The translations under genes and the position numbers were made by a program. From Candidatus Sulfomarinibacteraceae bacterium (GTDB taxonomy: Bacteria; Acidobacteriota; Thermoanaerobaculia; Thermoanaerobaculales; Sulfomarinibacteraceae): 64,000 nt of DNA. Every line of letters starts with the position of its first letter. Position 1 is the first letter of the stretch. The DNA lies in contig CAVUHO010000010.1 of the NCBI GenBank assembly GCA_963741385.1, positions 1,639,720 through 1,703,719 of the forward strand. The letters run 5' to 3'. The notes beneath the pieces were generated by a model, which ran no database searches, was not told where the DNA came from, and saw only the letters and a program-made list of their open reading frames with translations. Shown here piece after piece: positions 21,116 to 63,780 of this stretch.

Positions 21116-21435
21116 TTCGATTTCGGATTTCGGATTTCGGATTTCGGATTTTCCGCCCATCCCCCCACCGACGGTGAGCACTCGAGTGCTCAGGGTGGGT
21201 GGGACCGCGTGCGGCGGAGGTGCCACTTTCAACATTGTCTGGCTCCCGCACTCGCACGCCGGGAGCGCCTCTCGGTCAGACAATGTTGAGGGTGGCTCCT
21301 CTCGGGAAGAACACTGGGATACGTGCCGCGTGCGGCGGAGGTGCCTCACCTCACGGGAATGCCCATAGGAAGGTCATTCTGTAACGGAGGCCGCCAGCAT
21401 GAGAATTCAAAATTCAAAATTGAGAATTAAGAATT
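21116..21435. repeat. Complete mosaic element bounded by inverted 7-bp arrays
   Basis: Left array (TCGGATT)x5 at 21116-21152, then the core CCGCCCATCCCCCCACCGACGGTGAGCACTCGAGTGCTCAGGGTGGGTGGGACCGCGTGCGGCGGAGGTGCC. A TTTCAACATTGTCTG...CAGACAATGTTGAGG hairpin and a second CGCGTGCGGCGGAGGTGCC follow. The right array GAGAATT CAAAATT CAAAATT GAGAATT AAGAATT is at 21401-21435. Confidence 0.85.
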
Positions 21436-23670: not shown

Positions 23671-23740
23671 CTGTTTCCTCGCGTGGGCCGAACCCAAACG
23701 TGCATTCTAACCCATCGAACTCAGCGGGGTGTCGGCGGTT

Positions 23741-27770: not shown

Positions 27771-31279
<3,509 letters not shown>

Positions 31280-31283
<4 letters not shown>

Positions 31284-31517: not shown

Positions 31518-32813
31518 ATGAACGAACTCATCCTCATCGTCGATGACGAGACCGGCATTCTGACGACCCTGTCACAGATCCTGGTGGACGAGGGCTACCG
31601 CACGATCACCACGACCAGCGGCGAAGAGGCGCTCCACCTCTTTCGGGAGCAGCGGCCGGACGTGGTCTTTCTCGACATCTGGCTGCCCGATTGGGACGGC
31701 CTCGAGACCCTCCAGGCGCTGCGCGACGTGGACCCCTTTGCGATGGTCATCATGATGTCCGGGCACGGCACTTCGGAAACCGCGGTCAAGGCGATCAAGA
31801 TGGGGGCCCACGACTACCTGGAGAAACCCCTGTCCTACGACCGCACCGTCAAGGCGGTGGAGGAGGCCCTGGTGGCGAGACGAAACGCCGTCCGGGGCGC
31901 GGGCGATGGGGTGCTCGAGGCGAGCCGCGAACGCATCGAGCCGGTGGTGAAGTTCGACCCGCCGCCCCGCCTGTCCCTCTTGCGGAAGACCGACCGGCCG
32001 CAGCGCACGATTCGCGAGTCGAGCGTCATCTACGGGCTCGGTCTGCATTCGGGCGGACGCACCGGGATGGTCATCCAACCGCTGCCTCCCGATACCGGGA
32101 TCCACTTCCTGACGCTGCCGCGCGGCGTCACCATGCCGGCCCACGTGAACTCGGTGGCGGAGACCGACTACGCCACCAGCCTGACTCGAAACGGCGAGAG
32201 CATCCGCACCGTCGAGCACCTGTTGTCGGCGCTGCACGCGTGCGGTGTGAGCAACCTCCTGGTCAAGGTCCACGGCGAGATCCCGGTGCTCGACGGCTCG
32301 GCCCTGAGCTTTCTCGACAAGCTGCAGGAGATCGGCGTCGTCGATCAGGACGCCCTGGTCAAGGAGCTGGTCATCGACCGCCGTTACGAGGTGGGCGACG
32401 GCAAGAAGTCGCTGGTGATCGAACCGGCCGGCGTGTTCTCGGTGTCCTACCAGCTCAGCTATCCGCCGCCGGTGGGAGATCAGTACTACAACTTCGTCTT
32501 TACCGGGTGCGACGCCTACCGCGAAGAGGTGGCCCCGGCCAGGACCTTCGGGTTCATGCGCGATCTGACGATGATCAACGAGCTCGGGCTCGGCACCGGC
32601 GGCCGCCTCGACAACTTCATCCTGGTCGGCGAGGACAACGTCATCAACACCGATCTGCGCTTCCCGGACGAGTTCGTGCGCCACAAGATCCTCGACATCA
32701 TCGGCGACCTCTACCTGCTCGGCTACCCGGTGCGCGGCAAGGTGACGGCGAAGCTCACCGGCCACCGCGACAATATCGAGATCCAGCGGCGGATCCTGGC
32801 TGCGAACAGCTGA
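31518..32813 (+). CDS. lpxC: Response-regulator receiver domain fused to UDP-3-O-acyl-GlcNAc deacetylase (LpxC)
   Basis: aa 1-~120 form a canonical REC (IVDDE, VVFLDIWLPD, IMMSGHG, GAHDYLEKP). From aa ~165 there is an LpxC core: IYGLGLHSG, TVEHLLSAL, PVLDGSA, ARTFGFMRD, DEFVRHKILDIIGDL, TGHRDN. Confidence 0.9.
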   Translation: MNELILIVDDETGILTTLSQILVDEGYRTITTTSGEEALHLFREQRPDVVFLDIWLPDWDGLETLQALRDVDPFAMVIMMSGHGTSETAVKAIKMGAHDYLEKPLSYDRTVKAVEEALVARRNAVRGAGDGVLEASRERIEPVVKFDPPPRLSLLRKTDRPQRTIRESSVIYGLGLHSGGRTGMVIQPLPPDTGIHFLTLPRGVTMPAHVNSVAETDYATSLTRNGESIRTVEHLLSALHACGVSNLLVKVHGEIPVLDGSALSFLDKLQEIGVVDQDALVKELVIDRRYEVGDGKKSLVIEPAGVFSVSYQLSYPPPVGDQYYNFVFTGCDAYREEVAPARTFGFMRDLTMINELGLGTGGRLDNFILVGEDNVINTDLRFPDEFVRHKILDIIGDLYLLGYPVRGKVTAKLTGHRDNIEIQRRILAANS

Positions 32814-37079: not shown

Positions 37080-37143
37080 GAAATCCGAAATCCGAAATCC
37101 GAAATCCGAATTCAATTTTGAGGCGCCGCAGGCGCCTCAAAAT
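37080..37143 (-). terminator. Stop-overlapping hairpin followed (on the minus strand) by a 7-bp T-rich array
   Basis: On the minus strand: TGA, then the hairpin TTTTGAGGCGCC-TGC-GGCGCCTCAAAA (37115-37143), then TTGAATTC GGATTTC x4 (37080-37114). Confidence 0.55.
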
Positions 37144-45800: not shown

Positions 45801-46985
45801 TCACGCCGATTCGCCGCGCAGGATCTCCAGCGCTTTGTCGCGGTTTGCGAAGGACCCGGCTTTGCCCTGAAAGATGGGGCTGCGGCCGCCGCCGCGGCCA
45901 CCCAGGGATTCCGCCACCCGCGGGCCGGTCTCGCCCAGCTCGATCGGAGAATTCTCTCCGGCAGCGACGACGAACAGGAGATCGCCGTCACAGGCCGCTG
46001 TCAACAGGCTGCATTTCTCCGGCGCCGCCTCGACGAGATGTCGCGCAATCCGCTGCAGGAAGGCCATGTCGCGCTCGTCCCAGTGGGCATCGACGACCGT
46101 TTCGGGGCGGGCGGCGAGGGCTGCGGCCGTCCTGTCGGCCAGTTCCTCCGCGAGACCGCGCGCCGTCCGCGCGAGGTCCTTTTCTCTGGCCAGCCGGACT
46201 TCGACGATACCGGCGAGCTCGTCGTCGCCGGTGCCGAGCAGCGATCTGAGCTCGTGGTTGCGGGTCTCGTGTCCAGCCATCCGGCGCCGCACCCGGTCGC
46301 CGGCGACGAAGAACAGCCGGGTGCCGCCGCGCATGGGCTCGGTGCTCAGCAGACACAGAGTGCCGATTTCGGTCGTGGAGCGGACGTGCGTGCCGCCGCA
46401 GGTATTGAGGTCGAGGCCCTCGATCTCCACCAGCCGGACAGTCCCCGCGAAGCCCTCGGGCAGCCGCCGCGATCGCACGCCCAGGCGCTCGAAATCAGCC
46501 ACCTCGGCGGTTTGGTAGTTGACGGTCCTTGCCGTCCGGATCTCGGTCGCACACGCCTCCTCGAGCCGGTCGAGGTCGGTGCGTTCGAGGAACGGCACGT
46601 CGATCTCGATGTCGCTTACGTCGGGTCCGAGATGGAAGGCCGTGGTTCGCCAGCCGAAGTCCCGCAGGGCGACCGCGGTGAGCAGGTGTTGCGCGGTGTG
46701 CTGCTGCATGTGGTCCCACCGCCGCCCCCAGTCGAGCTCGAGGCGCACGGGACCGGTCGCCACCGGTTCTTGAAGATAGTGGCGGATTTCGTCCCCTGAC
46801 TTCTGGACGTCCACCACGGGGATGCCAGCGATGGTGCCGCAGTCGGCGGGCTGACCGCCGCCTTCGGGATAGAAGAGGGTGTCGGCCAGCACGGCATATG
46901 GCCGTCCGCCGTCCTCACCCAGCTCGAGCACCTCCGAGTCGAGCTCGGTGACATAGGGGTCGCGATGAAATGCCGGTGTCACCAT
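45801..46985 (-). CDS. alaX: AlaX-type alanyl-tRNA editing protein (large form with DHHA1-like tail)
   Basis: FYPEGGGQPADCG, HTAQHLL (HxxxH), CGGTHV, and a C-terminal GGRGGGRSPIFQGKAG. ATG at 46985. Confidence 0.75.
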   Translation of the reverse strand: MVTPAFHRDPYVTELDSEVLELGEDGGRPYAVLADTLFYPEGGGQPADCGTIAGIPVVDVQKSGDEIRHYLQEPVATGPVRLELDWGRRWDHMQQHTAQHLLTAVALRDFGWRTTAFHLGPDVSDIEIDVPFLERTDLDRLEEACATEIRTARTVNYQTAEVADFERLGVRSRRLPEGFAGTVRLVEIEGLDLNTCGGTHVRSTTEIGTLCLLSTEPMRGGTRLFFVAGDRVRRRMAGHETRNHELRSLLGTGDDELAGIVEVRLAREKDLARTARGLAEELADRTAAALAARPETVVDAHWDERDMAFLQRIARHLVEAAPEKCSLLTAACDGDLLFVVAAGENSPIELGETGPRVAESLGGRGGGRSPIFQGKAGSFANRDKALEILRGESA

Positions 46986-47001: not shown

Positions 47002-48522
47002 TCAATTCGACTCGATGATAGTGCGATCCGCAGACAGTGCGCCGCTGTGCAACACCAGGGTGGCGCCAGGGACCGTCGACGGTTCGTTGCATTCGGTGGT
47101 GTCGAGACGTACGGCGCTGACATAGGTATCTCGAAGCAGGTCGTTCCGCTCGAGCCACGTCACCCAGCGCGAGGCGGAGACGTTCACCCGCCCGCCGGTT
47201 GCGCGTTCCCACCTCGCGGCGGTCCCCGAGGGCGAACACAGCACGGAATCGCCGCTCCTGATCGTGAAGCTGAACATCTGATCCGACGGGGTGGTCGCGG
47301 ACCATCGCACGACGGTGGCGACGACCGAGTTCGGCGACTCTGCCGCAGCGGCCACGACCGCGGCCCGGCTCGAGTTCGAACGGGCTTCCGCCACGGTTTT
47401 CCGATCGTCCTTGGCGGCTTCACGGAGGCGTGCCTCCCACCGCCCACGGTCGAGGTTGATCTCGAGATCGGGGAGCAGAGCGCCTCCTTCGCCCACCAGA
47501 TAGTTGCTGGGGATGACGAGCCAGAGGTTCCTGGATGAGCTCTCTCTGGAGACCACGACACCCGCAGCCCGCCCACAGTCGTCGAGCAGCGGACCGCCTC
47601 TCGCAACGGTGGCGGTGGAAGCGTCGATCTGGAGGTACGACGTCCCGAGGAGACCGCGGTTTGAATCACTGACCGTGGCGCGCGAAATGATGCTGCCGGC
47701 TCCGCCCGGACTGCCGACCAGCACTACAGACTCGTCTCGTTCGAGGCTGGTCGAGTCGACCAACTGCAACGGCCGGCCCCGCGACCCTGTCGTCCGGACA
47801 AGCGCGAGGTTGAGCCAGCTGTCGACGCGAACGACCCTTCCCAGATCCGTGCTGCCGTCGAAGAAACTGACATTGACACTCGGCACGGCCGGACACACGA
47901 CGTCGGCGGTTGTCACCACAATCCCATCGCTGACGAAGAAACCCGACCCCGACCTGTTTTCGCAGCTCAAGCCGACGACGGCGCCCCGAGCGAGATCCTC
48001 GAGCGCCTCGCTGCTGAGAGGCCCGGTCTGAAGATTGTGAGCGGCTCGGGTACCACCGCGCCCCAACCCGAACACGGCGGCGATCAACGCGATGCCGAGG
48101 ATGATCGCAGCCACAGTTCCGGGCCGATCGGCGACCAGACGGAACATTGACCGTCCAAACCGCGGTTTGGCGGCGGGCGCCGCCTCCACGGTCTCAGCCG
48201 GCCGGGCGAGTTGGTGTGAGATCTGTGTGGCGAGACCGAGCGCCGCGAGCTTTTTCTGACAGGCGACGGCGATCGATTTTGGAACCGCTGTCACGACGAT
48301 GCCGGGCGCCGTCTGCAGACGGGATTTCAGGGTCAGAAAGTCGTGCGGTTGCCCGTCGACCTCGATCAGGGTTCGTGCGGCGTGGTAGGCGGAGCGGTCG
48401 TCGGGCGACTCGAACATCGTCAGGAGATCGAACAGCGTCCGACGGTGGCAGTGGGGGCAGCTGCCGGCGCCGGCAGCTATCGCCCGCCCACAGTGAGGGC
48501 AGAGTTGGTTCTCAGCATTCAC
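47002..48522 (-). CDS. Zinc-ribbon, single-TM, trypsin-like (S1C) domain protein with all three catalytic residues substituted
   Basis: N-terminal CPHCG...CPHC, then TM VAAIILGIALIAAVFGL. The S1C-like core has GSGFFVSDGIVVTTADVV (His->Asp), DSWLNLALV (Asp->Asn) and TVARGGPLLD (Ser->Arg). Confidence 0.65.
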   Translation of the reverse strand: MNAENQLCPHCGRAIAAGAGSCPHCHRRTLFDLLTMFESPDDRSAYHAARTLIEVDGQPHDFLTLKSRLQTAPGIVVTAVPKSIAVACQKKLAALGLATQISHQLARPAETVEAAPAAKPRFGRSMFRLVADRPGTVAAIILGIALIAAVFGLGRGGTRAAHNLQTGPLSSEALEDLARGAVVGLSCENRSGSGFFVSDGIVVTTADVVCPAVPSVNVSFFDGSTDLGRVVRVDSWLNLALVRTTGSRGRPLQLVDSTSLERDESVVLVGSPGGAGSIISRATVSDSNRGLLGTSYLQIDASTATVARGGPLLDDCGRAAGVVVSRESSSRNLWLVIPSNYLVGEGGALLPDLEINLDRGRWEARLREAAKDDRKTVAEARSNSSRAAVVAAAAESPNSVVATVVRWSATTPSDQMFSFTIRSGDSVLCSPSGTAARWERATGGRVNVSASRWVTWLERNDLLRDTYVSAVRLDTTECNEPSTVPGATLVLHSGALSADRTIIESN

Positions 48523-48613: not shown

Positions 48614-50395
48614 TCAATCGGGAGTTGAAAAATCAGCCGCCACCCTCGGGCCGGCCGCGAATCCATCGCGACGCGGATCGCCGACCCCGGTGAAGGCGCC
48701 CATATGCGGAAAATAGGCGGCGACGTTTACGCCGCCGAAAAATGCCGAATCCGCCACAGGGTCAGGTGGGTAACGGAGAACATACATGGTGTCGAACCCC
48801 ATTCGACGCAACGACTTGACATCGGCCTTGACGATGGGCCGGGCGACTTCGACGCACACCCGGCCCGGGTCGTGAGCGCTATTCCAGATCGCTCTGGGTG
48901 CCACCACCGCGTCGCGGACATTCATGTGCCGATCAACCAGGTTGGTGATGACCTCGCAGACGGACGGGGGGATCCGGTCGCTGCCGGCGCTGCCGAGCGC
49001 AATCACCGACTCCCGGGTGCGGACGATGGTGGGTGCCATGTTGGTCGGGAAGGTGCCGCCGGGTTGGAGGTAGAGGGGGTTCTGAGGGTTTTCGAAGTCG
49101 AGAAACTCGAGACAGCTGTTGTAGGGGAAACCGAGACCGGCGGTGGCGATCTTGGAACCGAATTGCCGGCACAGGGTCTGAGTGAGCGAGACCACGTTGC
49201 CGTCGCGGTCGATCACCGACACCTGAGTGGTGTGGTCACCGAGGGCCGACGCAGTGCCGCGAGGGCCCAGTTCGCTTTCGGGAATGGCTCGTCCCGGCGT
49301 GATGAGGGCGGCGCGTTCCCGGGCGTGGGCGGGATCGAGGTTGGACGAGCCGAACGGCGGATTCCCGCCCGCAGAGACTCCGCCCTGATCCGCCTGTGCG
49401 AGCCGGGTCGCCTCGATCATGATGTGCAGGCGCTCCGCGGAGTGTTCAGCGATGGTGGTGCTGGGATAGGTCCCGAGAATGTTGAGAGTCTCTACAACCT
49501 CGCCGCCGCCCCCCGGTGGCGGGAAGACCAGGATCTCGGCATCGCGATACCGGGACCGGAGCGGCCTGGCCTCGCGAACGCGGTACCGGGCGAGATCGAT
49601 GCTCCGGAGATACCCGCCGTTGGCCTGCATATCGGCGTTGATTTCGGCGGCGATGGCCCCGCGATAAAAGGTCTCGGCGCCGTCGCTCGCGATCCGCAGC
49701 AGGGTCGTGTGGAGGTCGGGGTTGCAGATGGTGTCGCCCGGCCGGCCCAGGTTCTGTCCGTCCTCGAGGACGATAAACCGCATGGACTCGGATGCCAGGA
49801 TCTCCTTCATGTAACCGCTGGCCCACGCGATGCTGTTGGGGCTGAGCCGGTAGCCGCGTGCGGCGTACTCGATGGCAGGTTCCAGGACCTGGCTGAGCTC
49901 CATCGTGCCGTAGTTCTCGAGGGAGTGGACGAGGGTGGCGAGCGTTGTCGGCACCGAGACCACCGTGTAGCCGAAACGGCCCTCGCTCGCCTTGATGGCC
50001 ATCAGCTCTTTGTGGTCAACCACGTAGGGCGCCGGCGTCGAACCGTCGACCGCGACGTCTCGTCCATCGGCGGTTGATATCAACACGTAGGTCAGACCGC
50101 CCAGACCAGAGCCGCCCGGATCGGAAACGCCGAGGGTCAAGGCCGCCGCCACTGCTGCGTCGACGGCGTTGCCCCCGTGCTCGAGCGCCCACACCCCGGC
50201 CTGCGTCGCCTCCATCGAGCCGGTGGACACCATGCCGAAATCGGAGCTCGCCTCGACCGCGTACAAAGGCCGGGCGCCGCCGTGGGCTGGTCGCGCCCTG
50301 TCGGCCACCGAACACCCCGCCAGGGAAATCAGGATGGCCGCTGCGGCGATGGATCCTCGAAGAAGCGGTTCGCGGCTTCGGGAGAATTGGGTCAT
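48614..50395 (-). CDS. ggt: Gamma-glutamyltransferase paralog 1 (lipoprotein signal)
   Basis: Lipobox ISLAGC, GGNAVDAAVAAAL, autoprocessing/nucleophile context LGDH-TTQVSVIDRDGNVVSLTQTL, and a C-terminal FFGGVNV. ATG at 50395. Confidence 0.85.
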   Translation of the reverse strand: MTQFSRSREPLLRGSIAAAAILISLAGCSVADRARPAHGGARPLYAVEASSDFGMVSTGSMEATQAGVWALEHGGNAVDAAVAAALTLGVSDPGGSGLGGLTYVLISTADGRDVAVDGSTPAPYVVDHKELMAIKASEGRFGYTVVSVPTTLATLVHSLENYGTMELSQVLEPAIEYAARGYRLSPNSIAWASGYMKEILASESMRFIVLEDGQNLGRPGDTICNPDLHTTLLRIASDGAETFYRGAIAAEINADMQANGGYLRSIDLARYRVREARPLRSRYRDAEILVFPPPGGGGEVVETLNILGTYPSTTIAEHSAERLHIMIEATRLAQADQGGVSAGGNPPFGSSNLDPAHARERAALITPGRAIPESELGPRGTASALGDHTTQVSVIDRDGNVVSLTQTLCRQFGSKIATAGLGFPYNSCLEFLDFENPQNPLYLQPGGTFPTNMAPTIVRTRESVIALGSAGSDRIPPSVCEVITNLVDRHMNVRDAVVAPRAIWNSAHDPGRVCVEVARPIVKADVKSLRRMGFDTMYVLRYPPDPVADSAFFGGVNVAAYFPHMGAFTGVGDPRRDGFAAGPRVAADFSTPD

Positions 50396-50432
50396 GACAC
50401 CGTGAAGTGTAACCCGTCGCTGCGGCGGCACC

Positions 50433-52295
50433 TCAGCGAACCGGAGTTCCAACCGAGACCGCGGCGGGGCCCCGTGCCGAACCCCATCGCCTGCTGTCGC
50501 CGATGCCGACGAAGGTCATGGCATCGGCATCCCAGCCGACGGCGTTGACGCCGCCAAAGAGGACGATCCGCCGGTTCGTTGGTGGGTAGGGCATTCGCTC
50601 GATGTTCTCGTAACCCATGGTCTCCAGGGCATCGACATGGGCCGATGTGATCGCGCCGGCGATTTCGACTGAAGTCTGTGTTCTCGAGATGCCGGCGGCG
50701 AGAACCCGCGGCGCTTCGACGGCCTCGACGAGCCCCATGCCCCGATCCACGAGATTGCTGATGACGCCGGTGATGATCGCCGGAATGCGGCTGCTGCTCG
50801 GCGCCCCGAGCGCGGCCAGGAGATCGCCGTCTTCGGAGAGGACGAGAGTCGGCGCCATGTCGCTCGGGCACTTGACCCGTGGCTGCAGATAGCCCGGGCA
50901 CTGGGGTTTGTCGAAGTTGAAGCCCTCGAGCAGGCTGTTGTAGGGAAAGCCGAGACCAGGGGTCACGACCTCGGCGCCATAGGAGCGGCCGAGCGTCTGG
51001 GTGAGCGTCACGACGTTGCCCCACGCATCCGCCACCGAAAGCTGGGTGGTGCTGTCGCCCGTCGGCGCGCACTCGGGATCAACGGGCCCCCTGAGCTCGG
51101 CGTCGGGAATCGGCAGTCCTTCGGAGATCGACAGGGCACGGCGCCGGGCGTGTTCCTTGGAGAGGTCATCGGGTGACGAGAACGCAAGGCCGTCCAGCGT
51201 TGCTCCAGAGGCAAGACGATCTGCGAACGCGATGCGGAGGGCCTCGATGAGCAGTTGTTCACGCCACACGGAGTCGTCGGCCAATAGGCCGGCTGGAATG
51301 GCCTCGAGGATGTTGAGGCTTTCGACGATGACTGGGCCTCCACCGGGCGGCGGGAAGGTGATGATGTGGCGGTCGCGATAGGTGGAGTGGAGGGGCTGGG
51401 TTTCGCGAATTCTCAGCATGGCGAGGTCGGTCTTGCGGATAAAACCGCCGTTCGCCTGCATGTCGGCGTCGATCTGGTCGGCAATGCTCCCCCGGTAGAA
51501 CGACTCGACTCCCTCGCGTTGAATCCGCCGCAGGGTTCGTGCCAGGTCCGGCCGGCAGCGGACATCGCCGGGCAGCCCGATGGCGGCATTCTCGTCGGCC
51601 GGTCTGCCGATGAGGGTGTTGTCGCCAAGGGCGATCAGGCGAAGAGAACCGGAGCGCAGAATCCGTTCGTAGTAGACATTGGTCCACACGATCTGGGTGG
51701 GGTTGAGTCGGAAACCTGACTCGGCCACCTCCACCGAGGGCTGGATCAGGTCGGCCATCGGTATGGTCCCGTACCTGGCCCGCGCGAACTCGAGCACCGC
51801 GAGGGTGGTCGGGACCGCCGCCAGCTCATGCCCTTCCATCTGGTCGGCTTGCTTGAGCTCGTGGAGCCTGGAGGGGTCGACGGCCCCCGGTGTCGGGGCG
51901 GTGCCGTCGATCGCGACGGTGCGGCCGCCGGCGACGCGGACGATCATGTAGGTCATACCGCCGAGCCCCGAGGCGTCCGGGTCGGCCACTCCGAGCGCGA
52001 TCGCCGCCGCCACCGCGGCGTCGACGGCGTTGCCGCCGCGCTCGAGGATCTGAACACCGATCTCGGTCGCCTCTGGAGATCCGCTCGCCACCATCCCGAA
52101 GTCCGAGTGCGCAACCGAAGGGTGGAGTGGGGCCGGGAGCGGTTTACCGGTCCGGGCCTCGACCTCAGCCGGGAGGGGTTCAATGCAGGGACCGGAGGTC
52201 GCGGCGGCAATCACCACAGCATAGATGGCGGTCAGCCGAATCGCCCTGTGGGTAATGCCGCGAACATCACAGCTCCAGGGTGCGTGTTCAGTCAT
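50433..52295 (-). CDS. ggt: Gamma-glutamyltransferase paralog 2
   Basis: GGNAVDAAVAAAIALGVADPDASGLGG, TGDS-TTQLSVADAWGNVVTLTQTL and LFGGVNAV. The start overlaps the paralog 3 stop by 8 nt. Confidence 0.85.
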   Translation of the reverse strand: MTEHAPWSCDVRGITHRAIRLTAIYAVVIAAATSGPCIEPLPAEVEARTGKPLPAPLHPSVAHSDFGMVASGSPEATEIGVQILERGGNAVDAAVAAAIALGVADPDASGLGGMTYMIVRVAGGRTVAIDGTAPTPGAVDPSRLHELKQADQMEGHELAAVPTTLAVLEFARARYGTIPMADLIQPSVEVAESGFRLNPTQIVWTNVYYERILRSGSLRLIALGDNTLIGRPADENAAIGLPGDVRCRPDLARTLRRIQREGVESFYRGSIADQIDADMQANGGFIRKTDLAMLRIRETQPLHSTYRDRHIITFPPPGGGPVIVESLNILEAIPAGLLADDSVWREQLLIEALRIAFADRLASGATLDGLAFSSPDDLSKEHARRRALSISEGLPIPDAELRGPVDPECAPTGDSTTQLSVADAWGNVVTLTQTLGRSYGAEVVTPGLGFPYNSLLEGFNFDKPQCPGYLQPRVKCPSDMAPTLVLSEDGDLLAALGAPSSSRIPAIITGVISNLVDRGMGLVEAVEAPRVLAAGISRTQTSVEIAGAITSAHVDALETMGYENIERMPYPPTNRRIVLFGGVNAVGWDADAMTFVGIGDSRRWGSARGPAAVSVGTPVR

Positions 52296-54072
52296 CGTCG
52301 GCGATCACGCGCGGCCCCATCGCCAAACCTCCGCGCCGCGGGTCTGAGACTCCCGTGTACGTGACGGTTGCGGGATCGAACGCGACAGCGTTGACGCCAC
52401 CACATCTGGTCAGCCCGATCGGGGTCGCGGGGAAGTCGATCCGTTCGATCTCCTCGTAACCCATTTCCAGGAGCCGATCCATATCTCCGTCGGTCAACGC
52501 CCCGGAAATTTCCGCCGTCACCCGGAGGCTGGTGTAGCCGCCCCAGACGATGCGGGGCGCTGCCACCGCATCGCCCAGAGTCATCCCGCGGTCGACGACG
52601 TTGCTGATGACCACGGCAAGGATGCCCGGGATCCGGTTGCTTCCCGGACTTCCAAGCACCGCAATGGGGTTGTTGTCGCGCAGTACGATGGTCGGAGCGA
52701 TGTCGTTGATGCATGGGCTTCGAGGTTGGAGGTACCCCCCGCACTGGGGCTTTTCGACGTTGAAAGATTCGAGAAAGCTGTTGTAGAAGAACCCCAGACC
52801 CGGGGTTGCGACCTTGGAGCCGAAGGACCGGCTGAGGGTCTGGGTCAAGGACACGATATTGCCGTACTGATCGATCACCGAAACCTGGGTGGTGCTCTCA
52901 CCTTGTGGGAAGCAGTCGAGGTCGACCGGGCCGCTGATTTCCTCTCTCTTGAGCACCCTGCCCGGAACGATCATGGCGGCGCGTTCCCGCGCGTGGTTCT
53001 TGCTCAGTACCCGGTCTGTTGAACCCGGGACGGCTCCCGAACTACCGCGGTCCGCGCTTGCGATTCTGAAGGTTTCCACGAGAGCATGGTGTCGTTCGAT
53101 CGTGTCGCTCGCGAGAAATTCGGAAGGGAACGTCTCCATGATGTTGAGGACTTCAACAAGCGTCTCTCCGCCGCCAGGGGAGGGGACAGTCAGGACCTCG
53201 ACGTCCCGGTACGTGGTCCTCAAGGCGGGGCGTTCGCGGACCCTCATCATGACCAGGTCGGACTTGCGGAGAAAACCGCCGTTGGCCTGCATGTCGGCCT
53301 CGATCTCGTCGGCGATGCTGCCGCGGTAGAAGTCGGCGACACCGGCGGCGGCGATGCGTTTGAGGGTGTTTGCGAGTTCGGGCTGACAGTGGAGGTCACC
53401 AGGTTGGCCGATGGTTCGACCGTCCTCCAAAACCAGATACGGTGCGTAGTCCGACGCGGCGATGAGGTTGTCGTAATAGTCCTCGGTCCACGTGATCTGG
53501 ATCGGACTCAGGTGATAGCCGTTTTCTGCAACCTCGATGGCAGGGTGCAGGGCTTCCGCCATCGTTATTGAGCCGTGGCCCTGGAGGGCGAGGTCGAGGA
53601 CCGCAAGCGTGGTGGGGACAGTTACCATCTCGTGGCCGAAGGTGCGGCCGGACAGTTTCACTTCACGAAGCCTGGCGATGTCAACCTGGGCCGGCGTGAG
53701 CGAAGTGCCGTCGATGACGACGGCCGGCCGGCCGGCCGGTTTGATGACCATGTAGGTCGCACCGCCGATGCCCGAGGCGTCGGGGTCGGCGACACTCAAA
53801 ACGAGGGCCGCGGTGACTGCCGCATCGATCGCATTGCCGCCCCGCTCGAGGATGGCTGCCGCCGCTTCGGTGGCTTCAGGTGAACCGGTGGATATCATGC
53901 CGAGATCCGAGTGGACCGCAGTGGCACGCAGTTGTGGCGGCGGCAATTCTCCGCTCTGGCTCGTCCAGGGGAAGAGGGCGAACACCCCGAACAGAACTGT
54001 CGCAAGCCCCCTGGGGCGTCGGCCGATTGCCGAAAATCCGCGGCTCGGAAATCTCTCAGTCATTGGCGGCAC
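52288..54072 (-). CDS. ggt: Gamma-glutamyltransferase paralog 3
   Basis: Signal peptide, GGNAIDAAVTAAL, QGES-TTQVSVIDQYGNIVSLTQTL and RCGGVNAV. The start overlaps the paralog 4 stop by 17 nt. Confidence 0.85.
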   Translation of the reverse strand: MPPMTERFPSRGFSAIGRRPRGLATVLFGVFALFPWTSQSGELPPPQLRATAVHSDLGMISTGSPEATEAAAAILERGGNAIDAAVTAALVLSVADPDASGIGGATYMVIKPAGRPAVVIDGTSLTPAQVDIARLREVKLSGRTFGHEMVTVPTTLAVLDLALQGHGSITMAEALHPAIEVAENGYHLSPIQITWTEDYYDNLIAASDYAPYLVLEDGRTIGQPGDLHCQPELANTLKRIAAAGVADFYRGSIADEIEADMQANGGFLRKSDLVMMRVRERPALRTTYRDVEVLTVPSPGGGETLVEVLNIMETFPSEFLASDTIERHHALVETFRIASADRGSSGAVPGSTDRVLSKNHARERAAMIVPGRVLKREEISGPVDLDCFPQGESTTQVSVIDQYGNIVSLTQTLSRSFGSKVATPGLGFFYNSFLESFNVEKPQCGGYLQPRSPCINDIAPTIVLRDNNPIAVLGSPGSNRIPGILAVVISNVVDRGMTLGDAVAAPRIVWGGYTSLRVTAEISGALTDGDMDRLLEMGYEEIERIDFPATPIGLTRCGGVNAVAFDPATVTYTGVSDPRRGGLAMGPRVIADDD

Positions 54073-55816
54073 TCACCCGCGGCCCCAGGGCGAGACCACC
54101 GCGCCGGGGGTCGACCGCACCGGTGTAGGTTCCCGTCACCGGATCGAAGGCGACGGCGTTGACGCCTCCGAAGTCCGCGAGGTCGACCGGATCAGCCGGG
54201 AAATGGAGTGCTTCAACAGGGTTCTCGTAGCCCATTGCGTTGAGAGCGTCGACGGAGTCGTCGGTCAGGGGTCCTGCGACCTGGATGTAGATTCTCATGT
54301 CCTTTCCGCCGTCCCACAGGATTCTGGGAGCTTCGATCGCCGCGCCCAGACCCATCCCGCGATCGACCACGTTGCTGATGACGCCGGCGAGAATTGAGGG
54401 GATGCGACTGCTGCCCGGAGTGCCGAGGGCCATCAACCGACCACCGTCGGACACCAGGATGGTGGGCGCCATGTCGTTCGGACAGGGGTCGCGCGGACGC
54501 AGGAAGCCCGGGCATTGGGGCTTGTCGACCTTGAAGGATGAGAGGAAGTTGTTGTAGATGAAGCCGAGCCCCGGCGTCGCGACCTTGGCGCCGTAGGATT
54601 GCCCGAGGGTCTGGGTCAACGACACGACGTTTCCAGCGCTGTCGATGATCGAGACCTGGGTGGTGCTCTCACCTTCTTCCGGCACGCAGTCGGGGTCCAC
54701 CGGACCCGAGATTGCGGTTTTTGGCAGGGCGGTGCCGGGCACGATCATCTGCGCGAGAATCGGTGCCTGCGCCTTGCGCTGCCCTTGAGTGGCCGGCGGT
54801 CCGCCCGCGATCAGGAGGTCGGCGCCCGCGCTCGCCCTGACGCCCAACGCGATGCGGGCAGTCTCGATGAAGACGTGGTGGCGGGCCAGCGAATCCTCGG
54901 CCATGAAAGCGGCGGGAAAGGTCTCGAGGATGTCGAGTGTCTCGACCAGGCTGTCGCCGCCTCCGGGCGACGGGACGGAGAGCACCTCGACGCCGCGGTA
55001 GGTCGTGGTCACGGGCGAAACCCGGGGCACACGCAACATGGCGAGGTCTCCCCGGCGAAGGGAACCGCCGTTGCTCACCATGTCGGCCTCGATGCGGGCG
55101 GCGATCGACCCACGATAGAAGCTGTCGACTCCATCGCGAGCGATCTCCCGTAGCGTCGCGGCCAGATCGTGGTTGCAGAAGAGGTCGCCCGGTCCCCCGA
55201 TGGTCTTCCCGTCGTCCATGACCAGGAATGGCAGATAATCAGAGCCCGCTACGAGGTCCTCGTGGTAGGCACGGGTCCACGCGATCTGGATCGGGCTCAG
55301 TCGATAGCCGAACGTCGCCAGATCGATCGCAGGCTGCAGCGCCGCGTTCATGGAAATCGTTCCGTAGGTGCCCAGCGCGAGGTCGAGCACAGCCAGCGTG
55401 GTCGGCACGGCGACCATTTCATAACCGAAGTCCCGATCGGTGTTTTTCGCTGCGCGGAGACCCTCGAGGTTCAGTGACGCCGGCGCGTGCGCGGTGCCGT
55501 CGATCGCCACGGCGTGTCCTCCAGCCAGGCGAATCACCATGTAGGTCATACCGCCGATGCCGGAGGCGTCGGAATCGGCGACTCCGAGGACGAGTGCGGC
55601 CACCACCGCCGCATCGATCGCGTTGCCGCCCCGCTCGAGCACGGCCACCGCCGCTTCGGTGGCCTCCGGAGATCCGGTGGCAACCATGCCGAAATCGGAC
55701 CTCGACTCCCGGGCCTCGAACCCGGGCGGGAAGGTTTGCGCGCCGAGGGGACCGCCGGGGAGTGCCGCCAGCATGAACCCTGCACACGTGGTCAGAAGAA
55801 ATACCGGAAACCGCAA
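54056..55816 (-). CDS. ggt: Gamma-glutamyltransferase paralog 4
   Basis: GGNAIDAAVVAAL, EGES-TTQVSIIDSAGNVVSLTQTL and DFGGVNAV. The listed 825-aa ORF extends into the RND gene in another frame. I place the start at TTG 55816 (alternative ATG 55774), and it remains uncertain. Confidence 0.8.
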   Translation of the reverse strand: MRFPVFLLTTCAGFMLAALPGGPLGAQTFPPGFEARESRSDFGMVATGSPEATEAAVAVLERGGNAIDAAVVAALVLGVADSDASGIGGMTYMVIRLAGGHAVAIDGTAHAPASLNLEGLRAAKNTDRDFGYEMVAVPTTLAVLDLALGTYGTISMNAALQPAIDLATFGYRLSPIQIAWTRAYHEDLVAGSDYLPFLVMDDGKTIGGPGDLFCNHDLAATLREIARDGVDSFYRGSIAARIEADMVSNGGSLRRGDLAMLRVPRVSPVTTTYRGVEVLSVPSPGGGDSLVETLDILETFPAAFMAEDSLARHHVFIETARIALGVRASAGADLLIAGGPPATQGQRKAQAPILAQMIVPGTALPKTAISGPVDPDCVPEEGESTTQVSIIDSAGNVVSLTQTLGQSYGAKVATPGLGFIYNNFLSSFKVDKPQCPGFLRPRDPCPNDMAPTILVSDGGRLMALGTPGSSRIPSILAGVISNVVDRGMGLGAAIEAPRILWDGGKDMRIYIQVAGPLTDDSVDALNAMGYENPVEALHFPADPVDLADFGGVNAVAFDPVTGTYTGAVDPRRGGLALGPRVSAAND

Positions 55817-55914
55817 TGAGAGTACCGCCGTAGGTAGTGTTGTCAGGTGATCGAAAGCCACCCGAGGGCGTTTCCGACGTCCTGTCGGAACAGTGTACAC
55901 CCGGTAGTTTGCGG

Positions 55915-58900
55915 TTACTGCGGGCTCGTCGGAACGCCGCTCGCGGGGATCTGGACCGGCCGCCCGCCGCGCCGCTTCGGCAGCGCCGCCAGCACGGCGG
56001 CGCCCACGTCCTCGAGGGTCGTGTACCACACCGGCAGCGCGAGCAGGGTGAAGATCGTCGAGGTGGCGAGCCCGCCGATGACCACCACCGCGATGGAGTC
56101 GATGTAGGCGCCGGCGACGGTGGCGCGGGCCCAGACCAGCGGAATGAGCCCGAAGATGGTGGTGATGGCGGTCATCATGACGGGGCGGAGGCGGTCGCCG
56201 CAGCCCTCGATCAGGGCCTGACGCCGCTCGACCCCGGCCACCCGCAGCGAGTTGACGTGGTCCACCAGGACGATGCCGTTGTTGACCACGATGCCGATGA
56301 GGATGATGATCCCCATGAAGGCGATGGGGTTGAGGTCGTAGCCGCCCAGCCACAGGCTCCAGAATGCGCCGAAGAACGCGAGCATCAGCGTGATGAGGAT
56401 GGCGAAGGGCTGGGTGAAGCTCTCGAAGAGGGCGGCCATCAGCAGGATCACTGCCATCAACGACAACACCACGCCGCGGAACATGGTTCCCAGCGCCTCG
56501 TCGCGGTCGTGCCCCCACTCGCCGAAGTCCCACGAGTAGCCTTCGGGGACGGTGAAGCCGGCCATCCGTTCTTCGACCAGCGCCTTCGCTTCATCGGTGG
56601 TCACCTCGTCCTTTTTGAACTGGGCGGTCACCCACTGGGTGGTTTGGCGATCCTCCCTCTGGATCCGCTCCGGTGTTCGCGCGATGGTGACTTCTGCCAC
56701 CGAGCTCAGGGGAACGGTGCCTCCGGTACGATTCGGGACTGGGAGATCGGCCAGGGCATCGATTCCCGGCTGGGCGTCCTCGGGGAGACCGAGCACCATC
56801 TCAACCTCGCCGTCGGGGCCCTGGAATCGGCGCATGCGCCGTCCGCGGAAGGCGAAACCAACTGCCTCGGCCACGCTGCGCGGGGTGACGTCGAGGCTGT
56901 GGGCGGCGTCAGCGTCCACCAGAAGCCGCAGCTCCTTGGTGCCGTTCATGGTGGGCCCCCACACCTCCTCGAGGTGATCGAGACCGCGCATTCTCTCCTC
57001 GACCTGCGTTGAAAGATCCTCGAGATATTCGGGGTCCTCGCCGTGCAGCGCCACCGACACCATGCGGCGGTCCTGGCCGCCGCGGTGCCGCCAGTTGTCG
57101 CGGTCGCCGATCTCGAGGCTGACGCCGGCGATCTCCGGCAGGCCATCCCGCAGCTGCGACCGCAGCTTTCCGACCGCCTCCGGATTGGCTTCAGACTCGG
57201 GCAGGTAGACGCGGGTCATGCAGAAGCCCTGTTCGCTGTACCACGAGTAGACGCCTTCGAAACCGAGTTCGTCCTTGCGGCTGTAGACCCACTCTTCCAA
57301 CTGATCGATATGCCCTTCCAAAACATCTCTGGACACGTCGTCGTGGACGCGCAGAAAGATCGAGACATCCCGGGTCTGTTCGGGCATGTCGCCGGACTTC
57401 TCGATCTGGGACAGCGGCCAGGCGGCCGAACCGGCGATCGCAAAGAGGCAGGTGAGGGTCACCAGACGGTGATCGAGGGTCCAGTCGAGCAACCTGCGGT
57501 AGGCCGGCACCAGCCTGCGGTTGACGAAACCGGGCTGTGGGTCGTGGGCGGGTGAAAACCGCGCAGCGGCCAGGGGAATGAAGGTCAGGGAGATCAGCAG
57601 CGAGCAGGCCACCGCCAGACAGATCGTCAGCGCGACCTCGCCCATCATGATGACCATGGTGTTGCGTTCGGAGACGAAGAGCCACGACCACACGAAGATC
57701 GAGGTGGCGGTCGAGGCGACCACCGCCAGCGCCACCTGTTGGGCGCCGAGCCGCGCCGCCACCGGCGCCGGGTGGCCCATGCCCTCGTAGCGGTGGATGT
57801 TCTCGATCACCACCACCGCGTTGTCCACCAGCATGCCGACGCCGAGCATCAGACCGAGCAGGGTGAGGACGTTGAACTGCGCGCCGAGGGCGAACATCGC
57901 GCCGCACGTGACGAGCAGCGAAAAGGGGATGGCGGTGGCGACCACCAACGTGGTGCGGAAGCGGCGCAGAAAGAAGTGCAGTACGACGACGGCCAGGATG
58001 CCGCCGTAGATGCCGGCGTTGCGCAGCCCCGACAGCGAGTTGCGGATCGCCTCGCCCTGGTTTTCCCAGATCAGGAGGTTGATGCCCTCGAGCTGGGGGT
58101 CTTTCTTGATCTCTTCGATGCGCTCGAGGGCCTTATCCACCACCTCGATGGTGTTGGCGCTGGGTTCCTTGTAGATGTCGATGCCGACCGCAAAGGAGCG
58201 GTCGAGGTGGCGTCCGTAGTCGAGGCGCGGTTCGCGCATCTCGACCACGGCCACGTCGCCGATCCGGAGGCCGTCGCCGCCGACGCGCAGGTCGGCGATC
58301 TCCCGGGCGGACTGGAATCGGGTCAAGGTGCGAACCTCGTAGCGCACCACGTCGCCGCGGATGACGCCCGCGTCGACGTCGTGGTTGGCGGCGTCGACGG
58401 CCCTCAGAACCTCACCGGCCTCGATGCCGTGCCGCCGCAGGGCGTCGAGATCGAGGTCGATCCGGACCTGCTGCTGTTCGACCCCGTAGAGATCGACCCG
58501 GGCAACGCCCTTGATGCGCTCGAGGGGGCGGCCGATGCGGCGGTCGAGAAGGTCCCACGACTCCGCCAGGTTGCGTTCGGCTGAAATCCGTCCCGCCAGC
58601 ACCTGGGAGCTGCCGCCGTCGGTGTCGCCGCGGATCGAGATGTGGCCGATGGTGTCAGGAAGCAGGGGGCGGGCGCGGTCGATGGCCTCGCGGACCTCCA
58701 TCTTCTTGATGTCGACGTCGACTCCCCAGTCGAACATCACCTGCATGTTGGCCGACCCCGTCTGCGTGTTGCCCTGAATCCGCTTGACGTCGGGGATGGT
58801 GGCGATTTCCTCCTCGATGGGTTTCAGAACCTCGCGCAAGGCCTCGAGCGGATGCGCGCCCGGGAAGGGGATTTCGATGTCGATTTCCGGCTCGTTGACC

Positions 58901-59016
58901 ACCGGCATGAAGTCGAGCGGCAGCAGGAAGACCGCCACCGTGCCGAGGACCGTGAGGCTCAAAAGGAGCATCAGGGTGGCAACCGGACGATCCAGAGGAA
59001 TGTCGGTCAGGCGCAT
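55915..59016 (-). CDS. RND efflux transporter permease (second of a tandem pair)
   Basis: 1033 aa, 12-TM AcrB-like layout. It starts MRLTDIPLDRPVATLMLLLSLTVLG and has a conserved GMLVDNAVVVIENI-type TM4 motif. ATG at 59016 after GAGGAG. Confidence 0.9.
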   Translation of the reverse strand: MRLTDIPLDRPVATLMLLLSLTVLGTVAVFLLPLDFMPVVNEPEIDIEIPFPGAHPLEALREVLKPIEEEIATIPDVKRIQGNTQTGSANMQVMFDWGVDVDIKKMEVREAIDRARPLLPDTIGHISIRGDTDGGSSQVLAGRISAERNLAESWDLLDRRIGRPLERIKGVARVDLYGVEQQQVRIDLDLDALRRHGIEAGEVLRAVDAANHDVDAGVIRGDVVRYEVRTLTRFQSAREIADLRVGGDGLRIGDVAVVEMREPRLDYGRHLDRSFAVGIDIYKEPSANTIEVVDKALERIEEIKKDPQLEGINLLIWENQGEAIRNSLSGLRNAGIYGGILAVVVLHFFLRRFRTTLVVATAIPFSLLVTCGAMFALGAQFNVLTLLGLMLGVGMLVDNAVVVIENIHRYEGMGHPAPVAARLGAQQVALAVVASTATSIFVWSWLFVSERNTMVIMMGEVALTICLAVACSLLISLTFIPLAAARFSPAHDPQPGFVNRRLVPAYRRLLDWTLDHRLVTLTCLFAIAGSAAWPLSQIEKSGDMPEQTRDVSIFLRVHDDVSRDVLEGHIDQLEEWVYSRKDELGFEGVYSWYSEQGFCMTRVYLPESEANPEAVGKLRSQLRDGLPEIAGVSLEIGDRDNWRHRGGQDRRMVSVALHGEDPEYLEDLSTQVEERMRGLDHLEEVWGPTMNGTKELRLLVDADAAHSLDVTPRSVAEAVGFAFRGRRMRRFQGPDGEVEMVLGLPEDAQPGIDALADLPVPNRTGGTVPLSSVAEVTIARTPERIQREDRQTTQWVTAQFKKDEVTTDEAKALVEERMAGFTVPEGYSWDFGEWGHDRDEALGTMFRGVVLSLMAVILLMAALFESFTQPFAILITLMLAFFGAFWSLWLGGYDLNPIAFMGIIILIGIVVNNGIVLVDHVNSLRVAGVERRQALIEGCGDRLRPVMMTAITTIFGLIPLVWARATVAGAYIDSIAVVVIGGLATSTIFTLLALPVWYTTLEDVGAAVLAALPKRRGGRPVQIPASGVPTSPQ

Positions 59017-59026
59017 GACGGCTCCT

Positions 59027-62584
<3,558 letters not shown>

Positions 62585-62631: not shown

Positions 62632-63780
62632 TCATCCGGCCAGCCCGTCGTCATCAGCTGATTCGGTTTCGGTCATGACCCGCACCTTGGCGCCTTCCGA
62701 AAGCGCCGGCGCGCCGACGACCACCACCTGGTCGCCGGGGGATAGGACGATCGCGGTATCCGCCGTGTGATCGATTTCCACTCGGTCGCCGCTTTCGAAG
62801 CTCAGCATCACCTCGATCTGTTCCACGAGGTCGCCATCGGCCAGGCGATAGAGGTGCCATCTCCGGCCCTCGGCGACCAGCGCCGATCGCGGCACGACGA
62901 GAGCGTTTTCGTGGGTGTCGGTGACGATGTCGACGCGGACGAAAGCGCCCGGGCGGAGCCCGGAATCACCGGTGACGGCCACCGTGACCTTGACAGTTCC
63001 CGTCGCCGGGTCGACCGCCGGCGCGATGCGTTCGATGAGGGCGTTTGCCACCGTGCCGGTCGCGTCCGCGGACAGTCGCACCTCCTGGCCGGCGCGGAGG
63101 CTGGTGACGTGGCGTTCGGGGATGTTGACGTCGGCGTACAGGGGATCGATGTCGGCAAGGTCGTAGACCGGCGTGCCGTCCGAGACCGTGGCGCCGACGT
63201 CGAGGTGTCGTTTGACCACCGTGCCGGCGATCGGCGCGCGGATGACGGTCCGCGACAGCTCGAGCTCGGCGAGCTCGAGAGCGTGGGACGCGTCCTCGGC
63301 ATTGCTACGGCTGGCCTCGTACTCGTCGACGCTGACCAGCCCCCGTTCCTGAAGACCACTCAGGCGCTCGAAGTCGCGCCGCGCCTTTTCCTCGGTCGAC
63401 CGCGCCCGGGCCGCGGTGATCTTCTGCTCGTCGTTCTCGAGGTAGGCGAGGGGCTGGCCGGAGGCGACCTTGTCGCCCTCTTCGACAACCAGCCGCTCGA
63501 CCACGCCGCGGGTCCGCGCGATGACCGTCGCCTGGCGATCGGCGCGCAGGGTGGCCGATGTCGAGTAGAGCGAGGAAATGGACTCGAGGGAGATAGGGCT
63601 GATCTTGACCGCGATGGCCGGTTCTTCCTGGTCGGATTCCGTCCCCGGTCCCTGGCCGTTGCCGCCGTCACCGGCGGTCTCACCGCCGCCGCAGCCGACG
63701 ACGAAAATCGAAGCGAGGAGAACCGAAAACGGCACGAGGTGCCACAGTTGCAGTGTCTTCGTAATCTTTTGGATGTTCAA
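62632..63780 (-). CDS. RND periplasmic adaptor (membrane fusion protein), lipoprotein
   Basis: TTG start after AAGGGA and lipobox FVVGC. Lipoyl/beta-barrel pattern (VVEEGDKVASGQPLAYLE, IRAPIAGTVV, a coiled-coil segment), HlyD/AcrA-like. Confidence 0.85.
   Translation of the reverse strand: MNIQKITKTLQLWHLVPFSVLLASIFVVGCGGGETAGDGGNGQGPGTESDQEEPAIAVKISPISLESISSLYSTSATLRADRQATVIARTRGVVERLVVEEGDKVASGQPLAYLENDEQKITAARARSTEEKARRDFERLSGLQERGLVSVDEYEASRSNAEDASHALELAELELSRTVIRAPIAGTVVKRHLDVGATVSDGTPVYDLADIDPLYADVNIPERHVTSLRAGQEVRLSADATGTVANALIERIAPAVDPATGTVKVTVAVTGDSGLRPGAFVRVDIVTDTHENALVVPRSALVAEGRRWHLYRLADGDLVEQIEVMLSFESGDRVEIDHTADTAIVLSPGDQVVVVGAPALSEGAKVRVMTETESADDDGLAG

Follow-up and report, generated by a model that had tools for sequence, protein, structure and literature searches.

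The 64-kb stretch of DNA analysed here (the window, from contig CAVUHO010000010.1 of a Candidatus Sulfomarinibacteraceae genome) carries on its minus strand, between positions 48614 and 55816, four consecutive genes of the gamma-glutamyltransferase (GGT) family, which we call G1–G4. A preliminary description, made from the sequence alone, had presented them as four full-length GGT genes lying head-to-tail, and end-to-end matches to the family profile PF01019 bore this out. The genes are listed below; types A and B are two kinds of copies that are told apart further on.

54056..55816, minus strand: G1, GGT-family paralog of type A, 586 aa from a TTG start at 55816 (PF01019 E-value 4.3e-97)
52288..54063, minus strand: G2, GGT-family paralog of type A, public gene call P0001, 591 aa (4.5e-101)
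50433..52295, minus strand: G3, GGT-family paralog of type A, 620 aa (3.2e-97)
48614..50395, minus strand: G4, GGT-family paralog of type B, 593 aa (3.6e-99)

The consecutive minus-strand open reading frames (ORFs) that hold these genes were listed as 48614-50452, 50433-52295, 52288-54072 and 54056-56533, and an alternative ATG start of G1 at 55774, the choice of a gene caller, gives a protein of 572 aa. A hidden Markov model (HMM) built from G1–G4 found no further GGT-family ORF in the 64-kb window, and Rfam and tRNA scans of the window gave no matches. The paralogs are 47–59% identical in amino acid sequence, in agreement with the earlier estimate that roughly half of the residues are shared, and 66–69% identical in DNA, with a synonymous divergence (dS) of approximately 1.0–1.3. 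The only internal DNA repeats reported by a repeat finder were four-copy families with 60–75% identity and a period of approximately 1.8 kb, and no near-identical repeats were seen within the array. Assembly stutter and recent duplication, which the preliminary description had also discounted, are excluded on this ground.

The junctions had been given as −17, −8 and +37 nt. We found the 8-nt start/stop overlap between G2 and G3 (ATGACTGA) and the 37-nt gap between G3 and G4, whereas the −17 junction between G1 and G2 is obtained only with the GTG start at 54072. The ATG at 54063 produces an 8-nt overlap there too (ATGACTGA), and this is the more likely arrangement, since the same ATG is the start in the public gene call P0001. 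Such 8-nt overlaps (ATGACTGA, GTGATTGA, ATGAGTAA) were seen again in three of the related loci described below (L009, L010 and L012). The tight junctions indicate co-expression; as a statement about co-transcription, the proposal of a four-gene operon went further than the overlaps and short gaps do.

All four proteins matched PF01019, the profile of the MEROPS T03 N-terminal nucleophile (Ntn) hydrolases, over profile positions 2–512 at 326–340 bits (cut-off 27, E-values 3e-97 to 5e-101), and their membership in the GGT/Ntn-hydrolase superfamily is secure. The scores against the equivalog profile TIGR00066 were 305, 317, 292 and 312 bits for G1, G2, G3 and G4, respectively (E-values from 1e-87 to 1e-94), all below the cut-off of 357.85 bits, and the residue-level comparison explains this by the replacement of the canonical pocket residues. 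In the numbering of Escherichia coli GGT (EcGGT), which is used hereafter, the nucleophile and its helpers, T391, T392 and T409, are kept in G1–G4. The autoprocessing context xS/H-TTQ(V/L)S..GN.V.LTQTL was found in each of them, as had been described earlier, and the loss of the nucleophile Thr from most copies, which the preliminary description had considered, was not observed (Thr kept in four of four). The nucleophile codons lie at 54664-54662 in G1 (putative Thr385), 52893-52891 in G2, 51050-51048 in G3 (Thr416) and 49231-49229 in G4 (Thr389). Among the full-length copies of related loci, residue 391 was always Thr and residue 409 was Thr or Ser. G2, the only copy modelled, gave an AlphaFold2 model with pLDDT 89 and pTM 0.89, which Foldseek matched to 4Y23, 2E0W and 2NLZ with E-values of approximately 1e-37 and TM-scores of 0.75–0.89; according to the model, G2 has a GGT-type alpha-beta-beta-alpha fold.

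The donor pocket has a different composition from that of EcGGT. The pocket residues were compared in HMMER and MAFFT alignments that were gap-free between conserved anchors (e.g. from T409 to F434), with the roles of the EcGGT positions taken from a review (PMC8062742). The residues of G1, G2, G3 and G4 are given in this order for each EcGGT position.

R114 (alpha-carboxylate): T, T, T, S
N411 (alpha-amino): G, S, G, C
Q430 (alpha-amino): F, F, L, C
D433 (alpha-amino): S, S, G, F
S462-S463 of the PLSSM motif (alpha-carboxylate): ND, ND, SD, TN
G483-G484 (oxyanion hole): GS, GS, SS, GS
P438-G449 (lid loop): absent from all four, the loop having the Bacillus length

The comparison of pocket and lid-loop residues, which had been suggested earlier as a check, thus showed the canonical binders replaced and the lid loop absent in all four proteins. 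By their alpha-carboxylate binders, alpha-amino binders and oxyanion pair, G1–G4 do not classify as bona fide GGTs. Two acidic residues near the site, E432 and D463, are conserved. In characterized enzymes the exchanges R114L and R114D lead to loss of activity, and D433N, or E423Y/E442Q/D445N in the Bacillus subtilis enzyme, moves GGT towards glutaryl substrates without an alpha-amino group (PMC8062742). The statement that all four genes look catalytically competent therefore has to be divided. As autoprocessing Ntn hydrolases the four proteins appear competent from their sequences; as GGTs they do not, given the replacement of six gamma-glutamyl binders and the TIGR00066 scores below the cut-off. 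G1–G4 are very probably active Ntn hydrolases, yet not demonstrably gamma-glutamyltransferases.

A C-terminal GGVN motif had been proposed as the oxyanion motif. This motif was found to align with MGSTQS of EcGGT and IGNVQS of Bacillus licheniformis GGT (BlGGT) near the C-terminus, and the assignment was rejected, as the true pair sits in the G-S-P-G-G-S-R motif (PMC8062742). The Gly483-Gly484 pair has been described as ‘invariably conserved’ (PMC8062742), and the residue at 484 is an invariant Ser in the clade to which G1–G4 belong. Since the exchange of Gly for Ala is tolerated at either oxyanion position in BlGGT (PMC8062742), the backbone NH groups of the Ser-bearing pair could, by analogy, still be functional.

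Export signals were judged by a hydrophobicity heuristic (the best 12-residue Kyte-Doolittle mean) instead of SignalP. Each of G1–G4 has an N-terminal hydrophobic segment with a Kyte-Doolittle mean of at least 2.1, located approximately 25–35 residues ahead of the conserved core, so the heuristic agrees in four of four cases with the earlier assignment of an export signal to each paralog. G4 has the canonical lipobox LAGC (Cys28), and a lipobox-like motif is kept in seven of eight type B orthologs. As to other cysteines, in the type A proteins G1–G3 the loop found in place of the lid carries two conserved Cys (KPQC...PC), and a further Cys precedes the cleavage site by seven residues; in G2 the cysteines are residues 226, 384, 441 and 451 in the 591-aa numbering. 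Type B is without the loop pair, and in G4 Cys409 and Cys428 (EcGGT 411 and 430) are found at substrate-contact positions. Disulfides in the predicted exported type A and type B proteins are plausible, the candidate pairs being C226-C384 and C441-C451 for type A (G2 numbering) and C411-C430 for type B (EcGGT numbering).

We compared 16 loci (L001–L016, 12 of them distinct), of which L001–L003 came from a genome scan and the others were found via seven homologs of window proteins. The closest genome match was a metagenome-assembled genome (MAG) of Candidatus Sulfomarinibacteraceae (Thermoanaerobaculia, Acidobacteriota), in which the G2 ortholog is 85% and the RND efflux pump genes are 89–91% identical. 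Arrays of two to five copies lie at the same syntenic site in nine distinct related assemblies (11 loci), and a tenth assembly (L002) has a contig that stops behind copy 1. The copy numbers were as follows.

Two copies: L015/L016
Three copies: L001, L004, L005, L011 and L012-14 (one copy frameshift-broken in L001 and in L004)
Four copies: the window and L009
Five copies: L010 (one copy split)

All loci except L003, L006 and L008 share the block GroES/GroEL, the RND periplasmic adaptor (MFP), two RND permeases, a varying number of GGT-family genes, an AlaX-like gene and, further on, a DHH-CBS-CCA/polyA polymerase gene. The variants of the block have opposite-strand GntR and Band_7 genes before the array (distant genomes) or a trypsin-like protease gene after it (some genomes). 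In L006 and L008 genes of the same clade occur singly in unrelated contexts. The frameshift-split copies, all in long-read MAGs, lie at 9776-11658 in L001, 11913-13755 in L004 and 11610-13429 in L010, and in L009 copy 3 is preceded in-frame, at 11574-11990, by a relic of a GGT C-terminus (profile positions 464–527). The split copies and the relic may be due to sequencing errors, or they may represent pseudogenes or scars left by unequal recombination.

Phylogeny and synteny had both been named in the preliminary description as checks. A bootstrapped neighbour-joining tree was built from 31 full-length copies, with the GGTs of E. coli and B. licheniformis added. In it, G4 clustered with the final copy of each array in the type B clade (100% bootstrap, eight genomes), and the orthogroups of G1–G3 were resolved. 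G3 has orthologs in L005, L001, L012 and L010, and G2 in L005 and L004; G1 groups with copy 2 of L009 (100% bootstrap), with L006 and L008 as neighbours. Because the orthogroups span genomes, the duplications are older than the divergence of these genera. The ratio of nonsynonymous to synonymous divergence (dN/dS, Nei-Gojobori) between each window copy and its closest ortholog was 0.18–0.25; the values per copy against its orthologs were 0.25 for G1, 0.19–0.20 for G2, 0.20–0.22 for G3 and 0.18–0.30 for G4. G1–G4 are thus under purifying selection. Copies have been gained and lost since the duplications. The array is real and dynamic as well as old and maintained. The earlier reading of an old, maintained array was confirmed by the orthogroups, the dN/dS values and the same-site arrays in the nine assemblies, and the array is not confined to the window genome.

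The pocket positions are constant within orthogroups and different between them. In all eight genomes the type B pocket consists of C411, C430, E432, F433 and D485; the G3-type pocket reads G, L, E, S/G, S-D, S-S, and the G2-type pocket reads S, F, E, S, then N/S at 462 and D463. The fixed differences between types A and B that adjoin the active site include residues 390 (the pre-cleavage residue, Ser versus His), 413, 440 and 482. Since the pockets are conserved within and divergent between orthogroups, the subfunctionalised specificities proposed earlier are plausible and gain indirect support.

The rebuilt pocket is not peculiar to the window. Each copy of the related arrays carries its signature, and 25 close homologs that were sampled carry it too. 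An exhaustive profile search of 1.84 billion cluster representatives (50% identity) gave 4945 matches at E ≤ 1e-30. When the best 150 of these were inspected, most of the top ~60 (above ~370 bits) had S/T114, G411, a hydrophobic residue at 430, mostly E432, and G-S at 483/484, and the canonical signature R-T-T-T-N-(E/Q)-D-D-S-S-G-G became the rule only below ~330 bits, the exception being a two-domain 1129-aa fusion with a Bacillus-type signature at 498 bits. No solved structure sharing the pocket signature of the clade was found, the alignment of 2NLZ giving the signature of the extremophile GGTs discussed below. Literature searches yielded nothing relevant on GGT arrays or on GGTs in Thermoanaerobaculia or Sulfomarinibacter.

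When the four proteins were compared with named enzymes, EcGGT (2E0W, 2DBU) was the best match to the G1–G4 profile in the PDB (E-value 2.6e-82). It is likewise an exported precursor, it has the fold of the G2 model (TM 0.75 on the query and 0.89 on the target), and its residues Thr391, Thr409, F414-G415, G424, N428, F434, P466-T467 and R486 are conserved in G1–G4. However, the identity is only approximately 26%, R114, N411, Q430, D433, S462 and S463 are replaced, Ser stands in place of G484, the 12-residue lid loop (P438-G449, with Y444) has no counterpart, and the pre-cleavage residue is Ser or His instead of Gln. The GGTs of B. licheniformis and B. subtilis (4Y23, 3A75) gave the best single-sequence match (E-value 1e-56) and the best structural match (Foldseek E-value 1.8e-37, TM 0.81/0.87). 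They are secreted, lack the lid loop and have a loop of equal length, and the alignment reaches the C-terminus. Nevertheless, they keep R114, E411, E430, D433, S462/S463 and G483/G484 (EcGGT-equivalent numbering), whereas the window proteins keep none of these site sets.

The group of extremophile, hydrolase-only GGTs (the ‘cephalosporin acylase’ 2NLZ of B. halodurans, GtGGT and YwrD) resembles G1–G4 in having Ser or Thr at 114 and no lid loop and in being GGT-family proteins below the threshold, and the G2 model matched 2NLZ with TM 0.81/0.89. The group differs from the window proteins in R430, N/G433, His-Thr at 462/463, an intact Gly-Gly pair and T-V/I-Y after the cleavage site (2NLZ, L003), and its members are intracellular and without signal peptides (PMC8062742), whereas the window proteins are predicted to be exported. 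2NLZ itself has N433, R430, H462-T463 and G-G. The class IV cephalosporin acylase type, in which Asp433 is changed to Asn and the rest of the GGT site is kept, was also considered, the D433N exchange being the rationale for cephalosporin acylase-type GGTs (PMC8062742); this candidate was rejected, as residue 433 is S, S, G and F in G1–G4. CapD, in a whole-chain comparison, matched the G1–G4 profile more weakly than the GGTs (E-value 3e-32 with its large subunit, 3e-16 with its small one); it gave TM 0.40 on the G2-model query, and the sole common trait seen was the missing lid loop.

LmbA and Ant6 (6J3A/6J3I) are GGT-fold, Thr-autoprocessing Ntn hydrolases, which the G2 model matched with an E-value of approximately 1e-32. 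These GGT homologs are without gamma-glutamyl activity and cleave a C–C bond in alkylproline biosynthesis (PMC5519988, PMC6085292). Unlike G1–G4, in which the cleavage motif is S|TTQ or H|TTQ, they have Asp|Thr-Cys-His. They are actinobacterial and cytoplasmic, they belong to antibiotic gene clusters, and the structural match is weaker (TM 0.74–0.77). No biosynthetic cluster was found around the window array, the neighbours being the RND pump, a protease, AlaX and the CCA enzyme. An LmbA-like C–C hydrolase was rejected on the cleavage motif and the lack of an alkylproline cluster.

The genes next to the array in the window are listed below.

62632..63780, minus strand: RND efflux periplasmic adaptor (MFP), first gene of the pump cluster; TIGR01730 216.6 bits against a cut-off of 94.9
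59324..62584, minus strand: RND permease 1, MdtB/MdtC-like; PF00873 E-value 4e-248, best NCBIfam match the RND_permease_2 subfamily
55915..59019, minus strand: RND permease 2, MdtB/MdtC-like; PF00873 E-value 2e-186, likely start M58 of a 1091-aa ORF reaching to 59190
47002..48522, minus strand: zinc-ribbon and trypsin-like (S1) serine protease, 91 nt downstream of G4; PF13365 E-value 6.8e-17
45801..46985, minus strand: AlaX-L-like alanyl-tRNA editing domain protein; tRNA_SAD, with AlaXM and AlaS C-terminal matches below their cut-offs

The MFP gene is syntenic in L001, L002, L005, L009, L012 and L015, and the protease occupies the position after the array only in some relatives (L009, L004). 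In three relatives the AlaX gene overlaps the stop of the last GGT-family gene by ATGA (L005 15432-15435, L010 18860-18863, L011 13469-13472), so that a cytoplasmic editing-domain gene and an exported hydrolase gene are translationally coupled there; in the window the protease gene lies between them.

Other parts of the window showed further features. Tandem heptamers (GAATTCG)n, with the complement (GAATTCC)n, occur at 59294-59325, 59028-59061, 27377-27403 and 37096-37113. They are AT-rich in a genome of 66% GC, and the 18-mer has 16 matches at ≤2 mismatches against 0.01 expected. Two of the heptamer arrays, in opposite orientations, bracket approximately 230 nt of spacer between the RND permease genes, and the arrays may represent an intergenic element of the REP or MITE kind. 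At 31518-32813 on the plus strand, a 431-aa protein consists of a receiver domain (residues 5–114, E-value 6.5e-30) fused to a complete LpxC deacetylase (residues 162–427, E-value 2.6e-80), a fusion suggesting that the committed step of lipid A synthesis is under phospho-control. A 756-aa protein with two phosphofructokinase domain matches is encoded at 21427-23697 (minus strand), and a homocysteine S-methyltransferase::MTHFR fusion at 25321-27699 (plus strand) lies directly upstream of a full-length B12-dependent MetH at 27771-31283 (plus strand).

We consider it somewhat probable that the array is an ancient, vertically inherited tandem family at a fixed Thermoanaerobaculia site, evolving by gene birth and death and encoding exported hydrolases with a rebuilt pocket and divided substrates. 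From what is known of the family, each gene would give an exported precursor, a lipoprotein in the case of G4 and a protein with a signal peptide or membrane anchor in the case of G1–G3. The precursor would cleave itself before the conserved Thr (Ser/His|Thr-Thr-Gln) to form a large- and small-subunit Ntn hydrolase, and the new N-terminal Thr would attack an amide carbonyl, giving an acyl-enzyme from which water or an acceptor would release the acyl group. In the rebuilt donor pocket, small or hydrophobic residues and a different acidic pair, E432 and D463, stand in place of the Arg, Ser-Ser, Asn, Gln/Glu and Asp of GGTs, and the cleft would be open because the lid loop is absent. The likeliest role of such proteins would be that of periplasmic or surface amidohydrolases with an acyl specificity other than the free gamma-glutamyl group of glutathione, candidate substrates being N-blocked or internal gamma-glutamyl linkages and other acyl amides from organic matter. 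The distinct, individually conserved pockets suggest that the paralogs, which comprise three orthogroups of type A and the lipoprotein type B, split a substrate range.

Several points weigh against this reading. The specificity of the clade is read from residue losses, and GtGGT and PtGGT, which are without Arg114 and Ser462/463, still hydrolyse gamma-glutamyl compounds (PMC8062742); since these extremophile enzymes stay active, the loss of the residues does not prove loss of the activity. It is also conceivable that E432 and D463 restore an alpha-amino site. The pocket reading, including the orientation of E432 and the proposed disulfides, comes from alignments, the predicted signal peptides come from the heuristic, and co-transcription is deduced from overlaps and short gaps. 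Furthermore, copy 1 of L001, copy 3 of L004 and copy 2 of L010 are frameshifted, be it through sequencing errors or as real pseudogenes.

The possibility exists that G1–G4 are ordinary gamma-glutamyltranspeptidases or glutathione hydrolases that bind glutamate in an alternative way and have been multiplied for dosage or donor range (glutathione, gamma-glutamyl peptides, poly-gamma-glutamate). The full-length similarity to PF01019 and TIGR00066 and the annotation of relatives by JGI as ‘gamma-glutamyltranspeptidase/glutathione hydrolase’ agree with it, as do the conserved acidic residues near the site, the function of extremophile hydrolase-only GGTs without Arg114 and Ser462/463, and the ability of lid-less GGTs to take polymeric gamma-glutamyl substrates (PMC8062742). 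However, the six canonical binders are replaced together with no basic substitute for Arg114 at the positions examined, substitutions of D433 abolish transpeptidation in EcGGT and BsGGT (PMC8062742), the TIGR00066 scores fall under the equivalog cut-off, and the signature of the extremophile group (S..R430..H-T..G-G; L003, 2NLZ) is a different one. We regard this explanation as doubtful and retain it because the extremophile enzymes cleave gamma-glutamyl compounds. Quite unlikely, in our judgement, is a seven-gene operon in which the GGT-like genes are coupled to the MdtABC-like RND pump and process an exported compound or detoxify conjugates. The MFP-RND-RND genes lie on the same strand, the stop of RND permease 2 is 98 nt upstream of G1, and no terminator-like site was found between them, so that read-through from the pump into the array is possible in the window genome; moreover, the order from RND to GGT holds in every related locus that reaches far enough, and nothing interrupts the linkage in the window, L001, L002, L004, L005 and L009. 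In L010, L011, L012 and L015/16, however, it is broken by the opposite-strand GntR and Band_7 genes, with an AbiEii-containing island in addition in L010, and because of these intervening genes in distant relatives the array has its own upstream region. Same-clade genes also occur alone and far from an RND pump (L006, L008). Since the conserved block also holds GroES/GroEL, AlaX and the CCA-adding enzyme, the linkage looks like core-genome synteny, not function.

The GntR gene (125 aa) and the Band_7/SPFH gene lie at 3536-9663 in L010, 4850-7853 in L011, 7020-9809 in L012, 8253-9377 in L015 and 8253-9770 in L016; only Band_7 was called in L015, and the near-identical L016 shows both. The window lineage has lost both genes. 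For this reason, and because Band_7 comes next after GntR on the GntR strand, the divergent GntR was considered as a regulator of the array and set aside.

Hetero-oligomers had been raised in the preliminary description, and the paralogs might form mixed large and small subunits or heterotetramers, the array then encoding the subunits of one complex. Translational coupling via 8-nt overlaps is typical of genes for complex subunits, and several GGTs crystallise as heterotetramers (PMC8062742). We nevertheless found no support for the proposal and consider it very unlikely: the variation from two to five copies among close relatives, with orthogroups gained and lost, disfavours a complex of fixed composition, every copy retains the full set of catalytic residues and has an export signal of its own, G4 is predicted to be lipid-anchored and the others are not, and single-copy relatives exist. 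As for an assembly artefact or a very recent duplication, nothing was found in support of it, though the related assemblies are MAGs and some have frameshifts. The divergence of the copies in DNA and at synonymous sites and the recovery of the array in independent assemblies, including a Logan contig that carries G1, G2 and the start of G3, rule it out, and we give it practically no weight.

Tentatively, the ancient tandem family of rebuilt-pocket hydrolases may be taken one step further. The clade might be functionally new, a class of exported Ntn hydrolases with the GGT fold that does not act on free gamma-glutamyl donors any more and instead cleaves N-blocked or internal isopeptides, other acyl amides or an LmbA-like non-amide bond; the array would then be a toolkit with a substrate for each orthogroup, in which type B is constant and type A copies are gained and lost. 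The precedent of LmbA and Ant6 indicates that a rebuilt pocket in the GGT fold can mean a wholly different reaction. With its fixed site, traceable orthogroups and two to five copies, the array is a natural experiment in the diversification of paralogous enzymes, and it offers four related pockets for enzymology and biocatalyst discovery; engineered pocket mutants of GGT are in use as cephalosporin acylases. The clade is large and environmentally widespread, with dozens of 50%-identity clusters in Acidobacteriota-rich metagenomes. Annotation pipelines commonly label GGT-family proteins as glutathione hydrolases, as in the JGI records of these relatives. Since its members keep the catalytic machinery without the residues for gamma-glutamyl recognition, it is unsafe to infer glutathione or gamma-glutamyl cycling from annotation in such genomes.

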